Positions 4,191 through 41,740 are shown, counted from the stretch's first letter. The stretch: 64,000 nt of DNA from an uncultured Methanoregulaceae archaeon (GCA_963717525.1 OY970343.1:64001-128000), one strand, 5' to 3'. Numbers and translations: made by a program. The notes: generated from the sequence alone by a model not told the origin.

Positions 4191-4918
4191 TCAGGCGATC
4201 GTATACGTGATCGATACCTGGGCAGTGACCGTTATATCCCCGGACTGGATCGGTGTCGGGGCAGCCGCCATTTTTCCTGACGCTGCTGCGGTCGTATCAT
4301 AATTGCCGTAGACCACCGGGGTGTACCCCTGGGTGATATCTGCTGCCTGGGTCCCGGTTATAGTCACGTTGAGGGCTGCAGCGACGGCATTTGCATCGGC
4401 TCTGGCGTTTCCGACTGCCTGGGTAAGTGCCTGGCCCCGGAGCGCCTGCGCCTTTTCGTCCGAGAAGAGGAACTGGATGGAGTTCACCTGGTTTGCCCCG
4501 GCGTTTACTGCCGTATCGATGACCTGCCCGGTCGTGTTGGTGTCCATGAGGGTGACCTGGAGGGTGTTTGTCACCTGGTAGGTTTTGACCGTCCCGGAAA
4601 AGATGCTGCCTGAGTCCTGCTGGTAGACCGGCGTGATCGAATACCCGGTGGTCTTAATCTCGTCACGGGGAACCCCTGATGCAGCGAGCGCATCCATGAC
4701 GTTGTTCATCGCAAGAGCGTTGTTTGACTGTGCGATCCTGACATCCGCGTTTTCGGTCTGGACCGCAAAATTGATCTGCACCCGGTCCGGGTACCTGTAA
4801 CCGATCCGCTACCGCTGACCTGTATGACATGGTCGTTTGTGGAATCCGCTGCTGCACAGCCAATCAGTGCCAGGGTGAGGACCACCAGGGCGAAGGTGAG
4901 TACTGCCGTTTTTCTCAT
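4191..4918 (-). CDS. SIMPL (DUF541) secreted protein; apparent frameshift near 4790
   Basis: Signal peptide, IQVSGSGSVTG(TPD), GANQVNSIQF, VTAQVSITY; split across two ORFs. Confidence 0.85.
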
Positions 4919-5088
4919 GGTATATCCGACCGGGTATTGGAGAACGGGGCGATTAAATATTGCTTTGACTGCGAAATTGTTCGCAATTATCAGGAAAAAA
5001 CCGGTGAATGAACCCAGATACAGCTGAAAGGAGAATGATCCCCCAAAGTAACATGTGCCGGCAGAGTGTATAGTACAGGCGATAGAGC

Positions 5089-6339
5089 ATGGGAGCAACA
5101 ATCGTCGAGAAGATCTTCTCACGGAAATGTGGCAGCGATATCAGGGCAGGCGAAGTGGTCATGACGCCCATTGACGGGGCCATGATCCATGATATTACCG
5201 GCCCGCTTGCCATCCAGAAGTTCTCCGAGATGGGAGGCGAGCACGTCTTCGATCCAAAGCGTGTCATCATGCTCTTTGACCACCAGATACCGGCAGACTC
5301 CCTTGAAGCGGCAAAAATCCACAAGTATATGCGTAAATTTGCCGCAGAGCAGGGCATCCACAACTACGATATCAACGAAGGGGTCTGCCACCAGGTGGTC
5401 CTGGAGAAGGGACGGGCAGCGCCCGGCGAGATCATTGTCGGGGCCGACTCCCACACCTGCATGTACGGTGCTGTCGGGGCATTTGCGACCGGCATAGGTT
5501 CGACCGATATGGGTTTCGCGCTCAAGTTCGGCGCCCTCTACTTCAAGGTGCCGGAGACGATCCGGGCCGAAGTGTCAGGAAAGTTCCGGAAGCGTGTCGG
5601 GGCAAAGGACCTGATCCTTGCAATTGCAGCCGATATCGGGGCCGATGGTGCGACCTACCAGGCGATCGAATTCACGGGAAAAACCATCGCAAAAATGGAC
5701 ATGCCCGGCCGGATGACCTGCTGCAACATGGCTATCGAGATGGGGGCAAAGGCCGGCATTGTCCCGCCCGACAAGGTCACGTGGGCGTACATGAAAGGTC
5801 GCAGGAAGATAAAGCCGTTCGATCTTGCGAGCGACGACAATGCGAAGTTTGCAGAGAAGCGGACGTACAACGTCTCGGATCTTGAACCACAGGTCGCTGT
5901 CCCCCACAATGTCGATCAGGGAGTACCGGTCAGCAAGGTTGCCGGGACCCGTATTGACCAGGTCTTTATCGGCTCGTGCACAAACGGGCGTTACGAGGAT
6001 CTCGCCGAGGCGGCAGAAGTACTGGGCAAAAAGAAGTTTGATTCGGGGACCCGGGTGCTCATCATCCCCGCCTCCCGTGATGAGTATCTCAAAGCGCTCG
6101 AAAACGGGCTTATAGAACGGTTCGTGAAGGCGGGAGCCCTTGTTGAGGCTCCCTGCTGCGGGCCCTGCATGGGCGGATCATTTGGCCTGCTCGCGCCCGG
6201 CGAAGTCTCGCTTTCCACCTCGAACCGGAACTTCAGAGGCCGGCAGGGCAGCACCGATGCGTTGGTGTATCTCTGTTCTGCGGCTACCGCAGCGGCGAGC
6301 GCTATGAAAGGTGAGATCACCGATCCGCGGGAGGTGTGA
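5089..6339 (+). CDS. leuC: 3-isopropylmalate dehydratase/homoaconitase large subunit
   Basis: GADSHTC, IGSCTNGR, CGPCMG, STSNRNFRGRQG motifs; LeuC versus AksD cannot be resolved by eye. Confidence 0.85.
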   Translation: MGATIVEKIFSRKCGSDIRAGEVVMTPIDGAMIHDITGPLAIQKFSEMGGEHVFDPKRVIMLFDHQIPADSLEAAKIHKYMRKFAAEQGIHNYDINEGVCHQVVLEKGRAAPGEIIVGADSHTCMYGAVGAFATGIGSTDMGFALKFGALYFKVPETIRAEVSGKFRKRVGAKDLILAIAADIGADGATYQAIEFTGKTIAKMDMPGRMTCCNMAIEMGAKAGIVPPDKVTWAYMKGRRKIKPFDLASDDNAKFAEKRTYNVSDLEPQVAVPHNVDQGVPVSKVAGTRIDQVFIGSCTNGRYEDLAEAAEVLGKKKFDSGTRVLIIPASRDEYLKALENGLIERFVKAGALVEAPCCGPCMGGSFGLLAPGEVSLSTSNRNFRGRQGSTDALVYLCSAATAAASAMKGEITDPREV

Positions 6340-9418: not shown

Positions 9419-9838
9419 TCAGACCCGTACGCCAATCTGCTGCTGGCCGGAGAGCCTGCGGTCTTTCCATGCGGGTGATGCGGGCTGATCAGGGATCCGT
9501 GCGATGGTGGCGAGCCGCTCCCTCCCGTAGATGACCGACCTGATGGCAAGGAGTGAAACTGTGAAGTTCCCTGCCTCGAAGAGTTCAAGGTTGAGGGCTT
9601 TACCGGATGCCGACACCTGTGCGAGGCCGCAGGTCGCCCCAAGGTAATAGTTCCACTCGCGGACGAGTGTCTCCACCTGGACAACAACCTGCCGGCCGGA
9701 GATCCCCTTTGCCAGATCCGCGAGCCGGATCGCATACCGGGCGCCCATGATGTGCAGTTCCACGACCTCATGGAGCTTGCCGTCATGGTCGATTGCCCGG
9801 TATCCTGTCCGCCGGATATAACCTGCTTTCTGCATCAT
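9419..9838 (-). CDS. Hypothetical protein
   Basis: ~139 aa ORF from ATG 9838 with a TATA-like element upstream; no recognised motif. Confidence 0.6.
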   Translation of the reverse strand: MMQKAGYIRRTGYRAIDHDGKLHEVVELHIMGARYAIRLADLAKGISGRQVVVQVETLVREWNYYLGATCGLAQVSASGKALNLELFEAGNFTVSLLAIRSVIYGRERLATIARIPDQPASPAWKDRRLSGQQQIGVRV

Positions 9839-9984
9839 ACACGACCACCTTCTGTCGTAGTAGTGCGTCTTTACCGACCGGTATATAAGCCGGGGCCGTG
9901 CGCGGGGTGAAAGTGAAAGAAGAGACGGGCACCCCTCTTTTTCCGGCCGATAATATCGTTGCCTGATAACCGGCACCTGGGTAC

Positions 9985-11116
9985 TTACACAGTTTTGTCC
10001 ATGCAGGCGTTCAGGACATCTTCGACAAAATGGAGCGTGCCACCTGTACCTGCAAGTGGGGGATGTGCAAGCCTGACCTGTCCGCGGAGCGGGGGGATGA
10101 TCCCGACAAAGGCACGGTCGGCGCACAGGGTGCGTTCGAACGAGGATCCTATCACGAGATCCGGTGCGACCTCCGCGATCGTTCGGCCGACCTCTTCAAG
10201 TCCCGCCAGTTTCTCAACCTTGCAGTGCACGCCCGTTTGTGCCGGGGGGTCGTTGCGCGTACCGATGGCAAGGATCTCCGCATCGAGATACCGTTGCAGG
10301 GTGTCAGCGGCAAAGAGAGCATACGCAGCGCCGGCAAAGACCGCAACCCCGGGCGGGTCGTACCGGCGGAGGAACTTGTCGCACGCATGGATCACCCGCT
10401 CCTCCTGCTTATCGAGTTCGGCCAAAACCGGGCCCATGTCAGCACCGTTATACGCCACGGCAAGCCTCTCACAGGTGGCGCGGAGCGCCGGTATCCCGAG
10501 AGTTCCGCCAATGTATCTTCCCGACCCCAGATCCAAAATCCTCGTTTGTACCAACCGTCAGCGGGGACGCGTGTCCCGCCATCCCGGCTAGGTCCCGGCA
10601 GAACACCGTTCCCACGGGGATGCCGGCACAGTGCAGCAGCCGGGAGATCTCCTGTATGTTTCCCTCGTAAAAAGGGTCCGAAAGAGAGACACCATCAATA
10701 TTGACTCCCGGTCGCTCCGAGTCGATCGCCGGGGAAAGCACAGCGAGAGCCGCCCGGTACCCGGCCTCCATCTCCCCGGCAAACCCGGGGCTGTCGACAA
10801 CAATAATGTCCTTTTCGTCAACCATCGATTTTATGTCCTCCCCAAGGGCGGAAGGAACACAGGTGGTGATTACGGCTATCCGGCCTCCCCTGCCGGAAAG
10901 ATCGCCGATCACCTCACGAAGCCGGTCACCTGACCCGAAAATCACCTCGTTTTCGAGGATGAATGTACTGTGCAGGGGGGCGTGGAGGAGGGTCGCCGGA
11001 TAATAATAGCACCCGCTCGACCCGTGGATGACAACCGTGATCCCTTCAAACCCGGCAAGGCAGGCTGCTGCCCCGGTCATGGCGCAGGGCCACAGGGGAG
11101 TCCCGCACTCAGGCAT
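9985..11116 (-). CDS. Nitrogenase component-1-like subunit (NifK/BchB-like, ~375 aa); apparent frameshift near 10520
   Basis: PCAMTGA, IHGSSGC, TTCVPSALGED motifs; C-terminus DLVIGSSFER...PLAGTGGTLHFVEDVLNA resembles the NifK end. Confidence 0.85.
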
Positions 11117-12149
11117 GGAGTGCCCTCCTCCATCGGTGAAGCATCCGCCGCACGCCGGTAATACCAATCGGCGGCGTCACGGGCACGGGCACCGGGCGTC
11201 CGGTTGAGGTGATGTCGAGCCGGAGGGCCTGTGCAATATCCTGTGCCACCCGGCCGCCTTCCGGATCGGGGGGATGCGGGAAAAAGGAGACCCCCAGACC
11301 CGCAATGTCCGCAAAATCGTCAAGGGTCTCCTGCCGGAGTGCATGTTCCTCATCCAACGCATGCCGGGGGTCGATCCCGCTGGCACCGGCAACAGATTCA
11401 AGAAATGCGATGGTTCCGGAGATCCCCACAGGATATCCCGGAATATAAGGGGTCCCAAAGCGCTCCCTGAGGTGTTCTCCGACAGGAATTAGGGAAGGAT
11501 CCCGGAGCACGTTGAGCCAGGCAGCCCCCAGTGATGCTATCTGCCTGGTGGTAACGTCATGGACAAACCGGACATTCACGGAGAGGCCAAGCAGGGTGAG
11601 TAGCCGGGAGACCTCGGCGAAATTCTCATCAACCTCGTATTCGAGGTTTTTCTCCCCGATGATATTCACCCTTCCGTTTCCCGTGGCCGGCTCTGCAAGC
11701 CCGGCAAGGGCAACAAGCGCATTGTTGACGCCGGTCTGGAACGATCCTCCGAGGAAGCCGGCGGTCGGGACAACGATAACCGGCACCCCGGCCTTTGAAC
11801 CGCAGACCATCCCGACATCGTCGCCAATGGTATCCACGATACAGGTAGAGAGCACAAAAACAGCCCCGGGATCGCGTGCGATCACCTGATCGAGTGTATG
11901 GTCAAGCGCCCCCTCGCCGCCGAAGATCACATCGGTCTCCGAGAGCCCGGTCGAAACAAGGGGGGGCAGGGAGACATGGTCATTATCGAGGCTTGTCGCG
12001 TGCAGGAGGGAAAAATTGTGATGTGTACATCCCGCCGGACCGTGTACGACCGTGATCGCATCGCAGACATGGGTGGTCACCGACAGTGCGCCGGTGAGGG
12101 TGCAGCCGGCAGATCTACATAAATTCGATGGCGAGGGCCTCAAGGTCAT
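11109..12149 (-). CDS. Nitrogenase component-1-like subunit (NifD/NifE-like, ~346 aa)
   Basis: [45 protein letters not shown] motifs. Confidence 0.88.
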
Positions 12150-12930
12150 CAATCTCGAGCGGGGTGGGGATGGTAAACCGGGTATTCTCCATCACCCGGG
12201 CGGCAAGATCCCGGTATACCGTTGCCTGCGCTGAAGCAGGCTCGTATTCGATCACTGTTTTACGGTTCAGCTCGGCGAGCTGCACGGTACGGTCCCGTGG
12301 GATGAACTGGACAAGGTGGCTGTTAACCCGGCGGGCAAATTCGGCCACCAGCTCCTCCTCCTTCGGCTGGTTCTTTGCGTTGCAGATAACACCGGCAAGC
12401 CGGCACCTGCTTTTCGGCCGGGAACTGAGGCGCTGGATCGCCTTGCAGATGTTATTGGCCGCGTACAGGGACATGAGTTCTCCCGAGGTCACGAGATAAA
12501 CTTCCTGCGCGTACCCCTCCCTCATCGGCATGGCAAAGCCGCCGCAGACCACGTCACCCAGCACATCGTAGACGATCACGTCGCCTGTGAGCGTCCCGAA
12601 CTTCTCCAAAAGCTGGAAGGTGGCGATGATCCCCCGGCCGGCGCAGCCGACGCCGGGCTCCGGCCCCCCGGCCTCGACGCAGCGGACCCCGTTAAAACCG
12701 GTATAGACTACATCGGCGGGTGATACCGATTCAGCACCCTGCTCGCGCACCAGGTCCATCACGGTCGGGATCAGCCGTCCCTGCATCAGCATGCGGGTGC
12801 TGTCGCGCTTGGGATCGCAGCCTATCTGGAGGATATCGTACCCTGCAAGCGAGAGGGCAGCGGAAAGGTTTGCCGATGTCGTGGACTTTCCGATACCGCC
12901 TTTTCCGTACAGGGCGATCTGTTTCATCAC
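12115..12930 (-). CDS. Nitrogenase iron protein (NifH)-like reductase
   Basis: [43 protein letters not shown] motifs. Confidence 0.93.
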
Positions 12931-13061
12931 CGTACTATGGGCCGGTAGTTTATATTAGATCTTCTGAAGTTAACAAAAGTAGATTTGCGTTTATGGCCCG
13001 CATGCGCTGGTCGGAGCCCCGGAACAGCGGCGAAAATCGATAAAAAGAGAGATGAACCGGG

Positions 13062-13442
13062 TTATGCCTTGTTGGTCCAGAGCCCGTGGACGCTGCAGAA
13101 TTCCCGGGCTTTCACGTTTGTATCATTGATCGGGAACTCTGCTTCAGGTTTCTCGCCGGGTTTGAGCCATCTGATATACGCATTGTCGCCGTAACGGACC
13201 TCGATCCACTGGATGTAGTGCTTCTCTTCCATCGGGTGGGGCACGGAACCGACTTTCACAAGAATTCCTTTTGCAGTCTTCTCTATCACCGGCACATGCT
13301 TCTCCTTGCCCTGGTCAGTGGTCTTTTCCTGCTGGAGGACCATCGGCTTCCCGCAGCACACCATCGTACCGCCGGATGCTCCGACTACCATCACGGTGTT
13401 CCCGCAGACCTCGCACTTGTAAACCTCGAAGAGTTTTGTCAT
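13062..13442 (-). CDS. dfx: Desulfoferrodoxin (2Fe superoxide reductase)
   Basis: CEVCGN...CCG, EKHVP, HPMEEKHYIQW, CSVHGLW motifs. Confidence 0.95.
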   Translation of the reverse strand: MTKLFEVYKCEVCGNTVMVVGASGGTMVCCGKPMVLQQEKTTDQGKEKHVPVIEKTAKGILVKVGSVPHPMEEKHYIQWIEVRYGDNAYIRWLKPGEKPEAEFPINDTNVKAREFCSVHGLWTNKA

Positions 13443-13459
13443 ATCGGCTGCTCCTTTTC

Positions 13460-14645
13460 TTACACGATGTTAATCTCTTTATGCTTCTTTAAGATTTCGT
13501 CGGCAAGCCGGTCAAGGGCCTGCATCGTCTCTTCACCGGGTTCGCCCAGTACCATGACCGGCGGGATCAGCTCGATTTTGATATGATCCAGCATCTTAGT
13601 GATCGTCTCGACGCTCTTGCCACCCCACCCATAGGAACCGATGACGGAGGCAAACCGGGTCTTGGGCCGGAGGGTGTTCGTGAGGTATGTCGCGGAGACA
13701 ACAGACGGGTGCGGGCCGAAGAGGACGGTCGGGGTAGCGATCACGACCGTGGCCGCGTCGACAAGGGCGAGAGCAAGTTCGCCGATGTCTGTCCGGGTGA
13801 GGTTAAAGGGTTTCACAACGATCCCCCGGGTGATGAGCGCCCCGGTGAGGTGATCCACCATCTTTGCGGTGCTGCCATGCATCGAAACGTACGGGATGAC
13901 CACCTCGTTTCTGACCGTATCCGATACCCAGTCCGCGTACGCGTCGAGGATAAACTGCGGATTCTTGTTGACCGGGCCATGGCTGGGTGCGATCATCGTT
14001 GGTGAGAGGGCCCTTACTTTCTCCACGTAGCCTTTGATGCTCCCGCGGAACGGCATCATGATCTCCGCATAATACCTTTTTGCCGAACGGCATGCCCATG
14101 CTTCATCCGTGATAAACAATTCAGTTGTGGCAGCGTGGAATCCGAACAGGTCACAGGGGAAGAGGATCTTATCCTCGACGAGGAACGTGATCTGGGTCTC
14201 GGGCCAGTGCGTCCATGGCGTAATGAAGAACCGGAGCGTCCGGTCGCCGAGTGACAGTGTCTCCCCGTCCACTATCCCCTTAAAGCGTTCCTGAGGGACA
14301 TGCAGCAGGGCAACAAGGAGATCCCGGCACTTGGCATTCGTGACCACCTGTGCTTCCGGGTAGAACTCCAGGATCATCGGAAGTGAACCGGAGTGGTCCT
14401 GCTCGGCATGGTTGATCACGACATAATCGATGCGTTCCACGCCTAGTTTCACGAGGTTTGAGATCAGATCGTATTCCTTCGAGGGATCGACCGTATCGAT
14501 AAGGGCAGTCTTCCCGCTGCCCTTGATAAGGTACGCGTTGTAACTCGTCCCTTCCGGCAGCGGGATCAGCTCATCAAAGATCCGCCGGTCAACATCAAAA
14601 GCCCCGACAGAATGTACCTCCAGAAACAAGTTCACGGGAGACCAT
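13460..14645 (-). CDS. fprA: Flavodiiron protein (FprA family); probable frameshift near 14620
   Basis: GTSYNAYL, NHAEQDHSG, HWPE, flavodoxin SMHGST and GSYGWGG motifs; the likely start (MVSRELV) is in another frame. Confidence 0.9.
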
Positions 14646-22159: not shown

Positions 22160-23307
22160 ATGTACTCAACACGCATGAGCAATCTCCCGCCGTATCTTTT
22201 TGCACGGATTGACGAGATGAAAGCAGAGCAGCAAAAAAAAGGTGTTGATATCATTGACCTGGGTGTTGGCGATCCGGATCTCCCTACGCCACCGCATATC
22301 GTTGCCGCTCTCTGTGCCGCAGCGCAGGACCCACATAACCACCATTATCCCTCGTACGCCGGATTGCCAGCCTACCGGGAGGCAGTTGCCGGCTGGTACC
22401 ACCAGAGATTTGGGGTGAAACTCGATGCCTCAAAGGAGACCCTCGCCCTGATGGGCTCCAAGGACGGGATCACCCATATCGGGGAAGCGTTCGTGAACCC
22501 GGGTGATTACGTGCTTGCCCCGAGCCCCGGGTACCCGGGTATTCGACCGGCACCCTGTTTGCCGAAGGTAAAGTCCACGAGATGCCGCTTTTACGGCAGA
22601 ACCATTTCCTCCCGGTTCTTGACGATATACCAAAGAAGATCGTGCGCTCTGCAAAGCTCCTGTTCATCAATTACCCCAATAATCCCACCGCCGCCGTGGC
22701 ACCGCTCTCGTTCTATCGCGAGGTGGTGGATTTTGCCGCGGACAACAATATTGTCGTGGTCTCGGACAACCCCTACTCGGAAGTTGCGTTTGAAGGCTAC
22801 CTCGCCCCGTCATTTCTGGAGGCACAAGGGGCAACGGAAGTCGGGGTCGAGATGCACTCGCTCTCCAAGACCTACAACATGACCGGCTGGCGTATCGGGA
22901 TGGCAGTGGGAAACGCTGAGATCCTCTCCGGTCTTGGCCGGGTCAAGACCAATGTCGACTCCGGGGTCTTCAACGCCGTCCAGTATGCCGCGATCGCTGC
23001 GCTCTCGGGCCCGCAGGATTGTGTCAGAGAGGCCTGCGCCACCTACCAGGAGCGCCGGGACGTGCTGGTGTCCGGGCTCCGCGAGCTGGGCTTTGATGTT
23101 CCTCTCCCGAAAGCAACCTTCTATGTCTGGGTGCCGGTCAAAGACTGCATGTCCTTTGCGGCAAAACTCCTCAACGAGGCCGGCATCGTGGTGACGCCAG
23201 GCATCGGCTTTGGCTCTGCGGGAGAGGGCTACGTGCGGTTTGCGATTACCCGTCCGGTAGAGCGGATCAAAGAGGCCATCGGGCGCATGCGGAGGCTATC
23301 CTTGTGA
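22160..23307 (+). CDS. dapL: LL-diaminopimelate aminotransferase; apparent frameshift near 22540
   Basis: LPPYLFARID, GSKDG, NYPNNPT, SLSKTYNMTGWRIG motifs; directly upstream of lysA. Confidence 0.88.
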
Positions 23308-41036: not shown

Positions 41037-41740
41037 GACTCGTGATTGTCGCCGGCCCGCCAAGCGCCGGCAAAACCGCGGTCATCCGCCAGATCATCAG
41101 GAAATTTGTGAAGACTGACACACCTGCGTACCTTAAGATCGATGTCGTGAAAGCGTTCGAGGACGAGGAACTCCGCGAGGAATTCGGCATTCCCACACGG
41201 AAGGTCTATTCCGGCGACCTCTGCCCCGACCATATGGGCATCATGGTGCTCAGGGACGCGATCACATGGGCAGAGGGGATCGGGGCCGGCATGCTCATTA
41301 TCGAGAGCGCCGGGCTCTGTCTCCGGTGTACACCGTACACGACGCAGGCGTTTGGCATTGCTGTGCTCCCCGCAGTATCCGGCAGCAACGCCCCGCTCAA
41401 AATGGCGCCCCTGATCGCCCTTGCTGATGCGGCGGTCGTCACCAAGACCGACCTTATTTCGCAGGCAGAAAAAGAGGTGTTCCGGGAGTGTATCCGGAGC
41501 GTTGTCCCGAAGATCGACATAATAGAAACCAATGCTGTGCAGGGTACAGGTCTTCGCTACCTGCTCCAGGCCATCAGCAGGTATCCCGGGATCAGCGATT
41601 TGGAGACCATCGCGCTGCGGGGCACGCCGCCGCTTGGGGTCTGCACCATCTGCATCGGTAAAAAAGAGATCGGCTGGCAGCACCATTTTGGCGTGATCCG
41701 GCCTCTCGCGGAGGCTGACAATCTCTACCGGGGAGACTAA
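41033..41740 (+). CDS. HypB/UreG-like (G3E) GTPase
   Basis: GPPSAGKT, LCPDH, ESAGLCLRC, TKTD motifs, C-terminal CTIC. Confidence 0.82.
   Translation: MRLVIVAGPPSAGKTAVIRQIIRKFVKTDTPAYLKIDVVKAFEDEELREEFGIPTRKVYSGDLCPDHMGIMVLRDAITWAEGIGAGMLIIESAGLCLRCTPYTTQAFGIAVLPAVSGSNAPLKMAPLIALADAAVVTKTDLISQAEKEVFRECIRSVVPKIDIIETNAVQGTGLRYLLQAISRYPGISDLETIALRGTPPLGVCTICIGKKEIGWQHHFGVIRPLAEADNLYRGD

Follow-up and report, generated by a model that had tools for sequence, protein, structure and literature searches.

Background

Among the described nitrogenase-like enzymes CfbD is the product of a single gene, a homodimer with two cysteines per chain, and F430 synthesis requires an Fe protein for it (PMC13474568, section 6). 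DPOR and COR (BchLNB and BchXYZ, Group V) are heteromers without a catalytic cofactor that take their substrate into the FeMoco pocket, DPOR relying on three cysteines plus an aspartate. The Nif, Vnf and Anf nitrogenases, NifEN and the Mar and Nfa systems (Groups IV-C and IV-A, respectively) combine six P-cluster cysteines with a NifH-type donor and depend on the equivalent of NifD Cys275, along with a His, to bind an L-type or FeMo cofactor; in Mar and Nfa the L-cluster ligands are of the Cys270/His428 type (PMC13474568). The Isr system (IsrHDK, Group IV-F), which works with the radical-SAM partner IsrB, differs in that IsrDK lacks the Cys275/His ligands and holds four of the six cysteines, with only Cys88 in its D chain (PMC13474568, section 9.4), and Group VI NFL proteins hold at most four of the six and have an H protein that is sister to that of Group V (PMC13474568, section 7). 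Nitrogenase-like pairs without both FeMoco ligands, as well as archaeal H-E fusions, have already been noted (PMC3464626).

Here we analyse a three-gene locus in a stretch of 64,000 nucleotides (the window) from an uncultured Methanoregulaceae archaeon (GCA_963717525.1, OY970343.1:64001-128000). A sequence-only reading of the window had proposed these genes, here named H, D and K, as an uncharacterised nitrogenase-like system of its own.

Results

Layout of the locus and the split in K

All three genes lie on one strand and overlap, H with D by 35 bp and D with K by 8 bp (Table 1); the sequence-only reading had described them as overlapping and co-oriented, and every motif that it quoted was found, including GCAGRG and VVCGG in H. 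Residues of D are numbered from the TTG at 12152.

Table 1. Features of the H-D-K locus, with positions counted in the window
Feature	Position	Strand	Basis
H, Fe protein (NifH homolog), 270-271 aa	12115-12930	-	PF00142, E 1.6e-108
D, alpha-like subunit, 346 aa	11109-12149	-	PF00148, E 1.3e-56
K, beta-like subunit, ~376 aa when intact	9985-11116	-	PF00148 on both halves
One extra base splitting K	10516	.	assembly error
TATA-like element, 22-30 bases before the H start	12949-12957	-	sequence, read by eye
Upstream neighbours of H: desulfoferrodoxin and metallo-beta-lactamase-fold flavodiiron-type (presumed) protein	13062-14617	-	Pfam
Small protein downstream of K, ~140 aa	~9420-9840	-	no Pfam hit

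The TATA-like element is the probable promoter of the operon, in keeping with archaeal promoter layout; a sigma-70 scan, whose consensus is not meaningful for an archaeon, found no promoter. The NrpR-type box GGAA-N6-TTCC, correctly reported as missing upstream, has its sole match in the 64-kb window at 41199, as compared to 1.85 matches expected by chance. As had been said of nifB/E/N, nifB is missing from the window, yet the genome does contain a nifB elsewhere that scores over the family cut-off; it stands alone (L181, G000:C1:1448219-1449034) in a genome without nif structural genes. The small protein downstream of K is conserved at this place in 73 loci and lies beside H in 5 of 5 loci that lack D and K.

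The frame of K is broken in this assembly by a single extra base, noticed earlier as a frameshift near 10520. This base is missing, at full depth, from the contigs of all four runs inspected (from four studies; three of the runs may be the source of this DNA and one is not so marked), and alignment with relatives leaves a one-base gap here in 11 of 11 comparisons. Among the 75 related loci with a K gene 69 have it in one uninterrupted frame, and in the present assembly cfbD is likewise split. The split of K is thus limited to this assembly and is an assembly error; the operon is not decaying. Together with cfbD a SIMPL-like gene and an aminotransferase gene are split too (G000:C1:660.3-661.0 kb; window 4191-5122 and 22160-23307), probably by more indel errors.

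Ligand residues of D and K

Cys17, Cys42 and Cys104 of D align with NifD Cys62, Cys88 and Cys154, and Cys11, Cys36 and Cys86 of K with the three NifK P-cluster cysteines; all six are invariant across the 44 D and 41 K rows. The position of the FeMoco ligand Cys275 is occupied by Arg217 of D, an arginine in all 44 aligned orthologs, which bears out the replacement claimed from the sequence. Phe138 and Val142 stand in place of nitrogenase Gln191 and His195, and the His442 loop is deleted. D had also been called too short to include the His442 region. The loop is indeed absent, but the chain is not cut before it, as the predicted fold of an ortholog aligns up to NifD residue 469; D is short because its domain III has shrunk internally, as seen in the ortholog model and the alignment, and because the loop is deleted, and not because of a C-terminal cut.

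Further conserved cysteines are D116 and K4, K245 and K370. Conserved basic residues comprise Arg12, His43, His44, His50, Lys167, Arg182, Arg194, Arg216 and Arg341 in D (40-44 of 44 rows) and Arg65, Arg159, Arg251, Arg287 and Arg343 in K (38-41 of 41 rows), and these may form an anion pocket. On the sequence level the best matches of D and K are NifE, D being closer to NifE/NifD than to BchB. Both score far below all Nif/Vnf/Anf family cut-offs, below those of DPOR/COR too, and reach 37.8 and 43.1 bits against the CfbD family TIGR03282 with its cut-off of 268.4.

Tree position and predicted folds

A 44-row likelihood tree places D in a clade (100/99) with NifH-NifD fusions and unnamed bacterial pairs, the latter labelled Limnochordia, Nitrospinae and Tectomicrobia, as sister to NifD/E, and groups K with the fusion-type K (81/82). 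D and K thereby fall outside the NifD/E, NifK/N and CfbD clades, in line with the separate standing that the sequence-only reading had given them; the tree is built without named Mar, Nfa, Isr, Vnf and Anf sequences, which were compared by ligands and family scores only. One clade of D and CfbD is rejected (p-AU 0.0007), as is a recent duplication giving rise to D and K (p-AU 0.002), and a clade of K with BchB/BchZ gives a p-AU of 0.22. The arginine at the Cys275 site, the lost His442 loop and the position outside NifD/E and NifK/N uphold the earlier view that the pair is not an N2 reductase.

The models of a D and a K ortholog (pLDDT 88.9 and 91.0, respectively) both have DPOR BchB as their best fold match, D with a Z of 29.4 (rmsd 3.8, 326 aligned residues; next family 27.8) and K with a Z of 38.8 (rmsd 2.4, 368 aligned residues; next family 34.6), ahead of AnfK, NifN and MarK. 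This likeness of the models may reflect compactness alone. A search of the ESM Atlas returned only the family's own clusters. Asp246 of K (Asp/Glu in 39 of 41 rows) aligns in two alignments with BchB Asp274, presumably the proton donor in this numbering, and Arg343 of K in one alignment only with BchB His378, the K-BchB alignment being weak (probability 6.9%). We take Asp274 and His378 to be the Asp290 and His394 of the recent review, with an offset of 16 residues. NifK likewise has an Asp within one residue of the K Asp246 site. BchB Asp290 and His394 have been named in substrate contact (PMC13474568). K ends short of the C-terminal helix of BchB, which is the pigment cap.

Comparison with the known systems

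With CfbD the locus shares an H protein that in practice is CfbC (see below), a similar subunit size and the lack of FeMoco ligands. It differs, however, in having two chains with three cysteines each, and the true cfbD lies elsewhere. DPOR, to which the fold points, likewise uses fewer cysteines than the six of D and K: where BchB has Pro, Asp and Cys, K has Cys at all three sites, Cys36 taking the place of BchB Asp36, and K lacks the C-terminal part of BchB whereas D groups elsewhere in the tree. Mar/Nfa, Nif/Vnf/Anf and NifEN share the six cysteines and the type of donor, but their cofactor ligand is an arginine in D and Gln191/His195 are replaced; NifEN is further set apart by the genome's lack of nif structural genes and by the place of D outside the NifD/E clade. 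Isr resembles the pair in having no L-cluster ligands but has four cysteines instead of six and a radical-SAM partner of which there is no counterpart among the conserved neighbours. Membership in Group VI NFL was rejected on the six cysteines of D/K and on the distance of H from BchL/BchX. The ligand tests hence rule out Nif, CfbD, Mar/Nfa, Isr and DPOR identities, and by its sequence D/K is an uncharacterised nitrogenase-like pair with a predicted ligand set that matches no characterised group, Mar, Nfa and Isr being compared by ligands and scores.

The NifH-NifD fusions with their K, together with the unfused bacterial relatives, belong to the same clade as D/K, and the fusion D chains shown are like D in having no Cys275 and no His442 loop. 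In the D/K family, by contrast, H is a protein of its own, D is shorter by about 80 aa, K has three cysteines as opposed to one in the fusion K, and no FecCD importer lies beside the genes. Of four fusion loci examined three have a FecCD-type metal-chelate importer in front of them; in L121, L122 and L147, from methanogens of two orders, the fusion and K follow a FecCD-type ABC importer directly. The bacterial sister pair (L212, one usable locus) has no Fe protein beside it, and its neighbours are uninformative.

Distribution of the family

The closest named relatives of the locus are in Methanoregula and then Methanoculleus, order Methanomicrobiales. D was matched at E <= 1e-60 in 199 of the 218 genomes of this order (single-protein census, counted by hand). 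The 19 misses comprise all 13 genomes of genus-level group g11, all three of group g4 and three single genomes, G098, which a profile recovered, and G138 and G005, which are misses of the single-protein census. K is found once each in 84 of the 93 genomes that are at least 98% complete, and since its nine misses all fall in g4 and g11 it is present in 84 of 84 near-complete genomes outside these groups. No D ortholog was found in 210 sampled genomes of the phylum outside the order, the best score being 5.9e-51. In an EF-2 tree (29 rows; G111, with a partial gene, was dropped) g4 and g11 form one clade (100/100) nested in the order, which points to a single loss of D/K and rules out independent losses in the two groups. 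A profile search of 1.8 billion representatives returned a tight family, followed by a gap to proteins of 370-450 aa and fusions of 730 aa. H, D and K occur together in 33 of 33 loci across six families of the order, the exception in layout being Methanoculleus, where K lies 2-4 kb away on the opposite strand. One species of this genus, Methanoculleus thermophilus, is accessible to genetics (PMC9081873).

D/K is therefore not peculiar to this genome but a single-copy, near-core gene pair of Methanomicrobiales. The step that depends on it is dispensable, because the g4 and g11 clade and all other methanogens sampled live without it. A description of the family was not found in the literature, including the available parts of PMC13753814, 10.64898/2026.08.20.746119, 10.1101/765248, PMC9447857, PMC7317204 and PMC7886697, and the pair can still be called uncharacterised; it may be plotted in a figure or the supplements of PMC3464626.

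H as the single Fe protein

H scores 416.8 bits against the NCBIfam CfbC model, over its cut-off of 402, and 385.7 bits against NifH, under the cut-off of 394. We do not take the CfbC label as proof of identity, as the cut-off is unspecific and a Group III-type NifH passes it too. Cys96 and Cys129 are the cluster ligands of H. The source genome, which is 87% complete, contains one NifH homolog, a second one not being found, and three PF00148 genes, namely D, K and an unlinked cfbD. Of a separate cfbCD elsewhere in the genome, on which the sequence-only reading had counted, there is thus cfbD but no NifH homolog other than H. Since CfbD needs an Fe protein, H is the working CfbC of the source genome, by elimination and not by assay, and the notion of a self-contained three-gene system has to be given up, as H must also serve CfbD. 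A single NifH-like gene was also counted by hand (E <= 1e-40) in 89 of 154 Methanomicrobiales genomes at least 95% complete. In the genomes without D/K, H is retained alone in 11 of 11 loci fetched, and three of the five such genomes checked contain a single PF00148 gene and no Fe protein other than H.

H is 57-58% identical to Methanosarcina-type NifH and 48-51% to the cfbD-adjacent CfbC of other orders; a clade with the latter is weakly disfavoured (p-AU 0.037) in a comparison with three CfbC rows only and with unresolved deep nodes. The H tree and an earlier D/K clade tree are quick or FastTree versions. Residue 138 of H is one of only two columns that are conserved with D/K and changed without. 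It is Glu or Asp in 33 of 33 D/K loci and in another 71 of 71 H rows, two sets with a possible overlap, Glu138 in the present H, and Lys in 11 of 11 loci without D/K and in three of three cfbD-adjacent CfbC. The adjoining Arg140 of NifH is an interface residue (PMC10657360). Lys or Arg is frequent at this position in the fusion-type Fe proteins that work with heteromers, and since the genera without D/K are one clade the swap from Glu to Lys represents one evolutionary event. We regard the apparent tracking of D/K presence by residue 138 as a lead.

Several other Fe proteins and nitrogenase-like genes were seen in the course of these comparisons. In G227 the only Fe protein (L138) belongs to the PRK13230 subfamily, outside the CfbC model, which suggests that Fe proteins of several lineages act as CfbC, depending on the order. 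A further H-D-K set, nearly invariant and with a Cys at position 275 (L137, L159, L160, L161, L164 and L165), is common to families f10 and f14 and to some Methanomicrobiales; in G222 no Fe protein was found besides the H of this set, and cfbD lies elsewhere, a second case in which the donor must be shared. A separate single-gene nitrogenase-like family of about 396 aa (L149-L157 and L162; e.g. L154:3930-5117) has three P-type cysteines, Cys at 275 and a conserved MHG/MHS near the His442 region; these proteins could be homodimeric relatives that possess a cofactor site. The gene occurs in families f8 and f10 and in some Methanomicrobiales, the copy in G047 lying downstream of cfbD and a CbiA/CfbB-type gene.

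Conserved neighbours

The conserved neighbours are the flavodiiron-type protein, desulfoferrodoxin, TrkH, phosphoribulokinase and leu genes. Several of them are found also where D/K is missing and represent order-level synteny: the flavodiiron-type gene is present in 13 of 25 D/K loci and in five of five loci without D/K, and together with desulfoferrodoxin, upstream of H, it goes with the H locus. A link to oxygen defence was consequently dropped as specific evidence, as the same neighbours flank H in genomes without D/K. The conserved neighbours of the family include no tetrapyrrole genes, no sulfur genes, no radical-SAM partner and no FecCD-type importer.

Discussion

From the residues that are kept and lost, we suggest that D and K would assemble into a compact catalytic heteromer, probably a (DK)2, whose interface would hold one Fe-S centre ligated by up to six cysteines, either a P-type cluster or two 4Fe-4S cubes. 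The pair would carry no catalytic metal cofactor, and its FeMoco-type pocket would be open, lined by basic residues and able to take an organic anion as in DPOR. Electrons would reach D/K with ATP hydrolysis from the adjacent Fe protein, whose use by D/K we consider likely and which would be the common donor for D/K and for CfbD in F430 synthesis. The substrate might be a carboxylate-rich metal tetrapyrrole, whether a corrinoid, an F430 intermediate or an oxidised derivative of F430, and the reduction would take place at the metal or at one of the ring double bonds; the step would be useful but not essential. This guess is based on the donor held in common with CfbD, the missing cofactor ligands, the BchB-like build and the sister clade beside metal-chelate importers, and we hold the assignment of such a substrate somewhat short of an even chance. 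Our favoured but tentative reading as a whole, that the electron donor of F430 synthesis may feed D/K as a second reductase, with a metal tetrapyrrole as its substrate, deserves the same reserve. Oxidised F430 derivatives do exist (PMC8549059), and the enzymes for F430 modifications are unknown (PMC9081873); oxidised or modified F430 species are accordingly testable candidates, but they are not evidence.

A bolder version, which is unlikely as it stands, has an ancestor of Methanomicrobiales acquire H, D and K as a complete operon from the fusion-type lineage. The Fe protein that came with it would have displaced the original CfbC and would now drive two partners, the CfbD homodimer and a D/K enzyme with a P-cluster only, the latter reducing a nickel tetrapyrrole either in the repair of oxidised F430, e.g. 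12,13-didehydro-F430, or in a further F430 modification. If this were true, a six-cysteine cluster would act on an organic substrate directly, with no second cofactor, and would place the enzyme between DPOR and nitrogenase.

But could D/K serve in cluster assembly instead? The best sequence matches are after all to NifE, the genome has its lone nifB without nif structural genes, and L-type clusters have been reported in the MCR activation complex (PMC13474568), so that D/K might act as the scaffold or relay where H assembles or mends an 8Fe cluster destined for another enzyme such as this complex, or as an accessory of CfbCD; the extra conserved cysteines of both chains could hold a transient metal. 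The L-cluster ligand Cys275, however, is kept in NifE and lost in D, and the other methanogens sampled manage without D/K as do those of the g4 and g11 clade, which leaves this role unlikely too, if the best placed among the alternatives to a tetrapyrrole reductase. Next in standing, and doubtful, is a reductive cleavage of a C-S bond in a sulfonate or thioether, e.g. a coenzyme M derivative, by an enzyme without an L-type cofactor, as is thought for isethionate reductase. IsrDK lacks the same ligands (PMC13474568), the majority of Group IV systems have a link to sulfur metabolism (PMC13753814) and the basic residues would fit a sulfonate as well as carboxylates. Then again, neither sulfur genes nor a radical-SAM partner accompany the family, Isr has two cysteines fewer, and the presence in every near-complete genome outside one clade fits housekeeping better than scavenging.

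The importers beside the fusion loci, and an importer link that has been noted for other nitrogenase-like pairs (PMC3464626), would agree with a salvage of imported metal chelates, either by reductive release of the metal or by remodelling, from a corrinoid, a heme or F430 that has been taken up; this is the task proposed for the sister lineage. As the D/K family has no such importer among its conserved neighbours and is single-copy and vertically kept whereas the fusion loci are patchy, we find this more doubtful still. It is improbable that H serves CfbD only and that D/K is a passenger with another donor or pairs with CfbD: H does survive the loss of D/K and the bacterial sister pair has no adjacent Fe protein, but the overlapping H and D genes are kept across six families, 89 of the 154 genomes contain no other Fe protein, and residue 138 of H appears to track D/K. 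Finally, a decaying operon or an artefact, which the split K alone could suggest, is practically excluded, being refuted by the four runs without the extra base and at odds with the equally split cfbD and the single K of 84 genomes.

Conclusions

The functions of uncharacterised nitrogenase-like clades and the choice of partners by Fe proteins are among the open problems named in a 2026 review (PMC13474568, section 10). The D/K family bears on both, as an enzyme that is near-core in a major order of methanogens and whose apparent ligand set is unlike that of any characterised group, and as a case of partner choice in which the gene count obliges H to serve CfbD, with D/K as a probable second partner. 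The clade without D/K provides a natural negative control, and a single position of H, residue 138, differs there as well. What is unusual about D/K is the donor that it would have in common with F430 synthesis, which points to a second reduction by the same donor, often the cell's only Fe protein of this type. If the substrate is an F430 species, D/K would add a step to the chemistry of methane formation.
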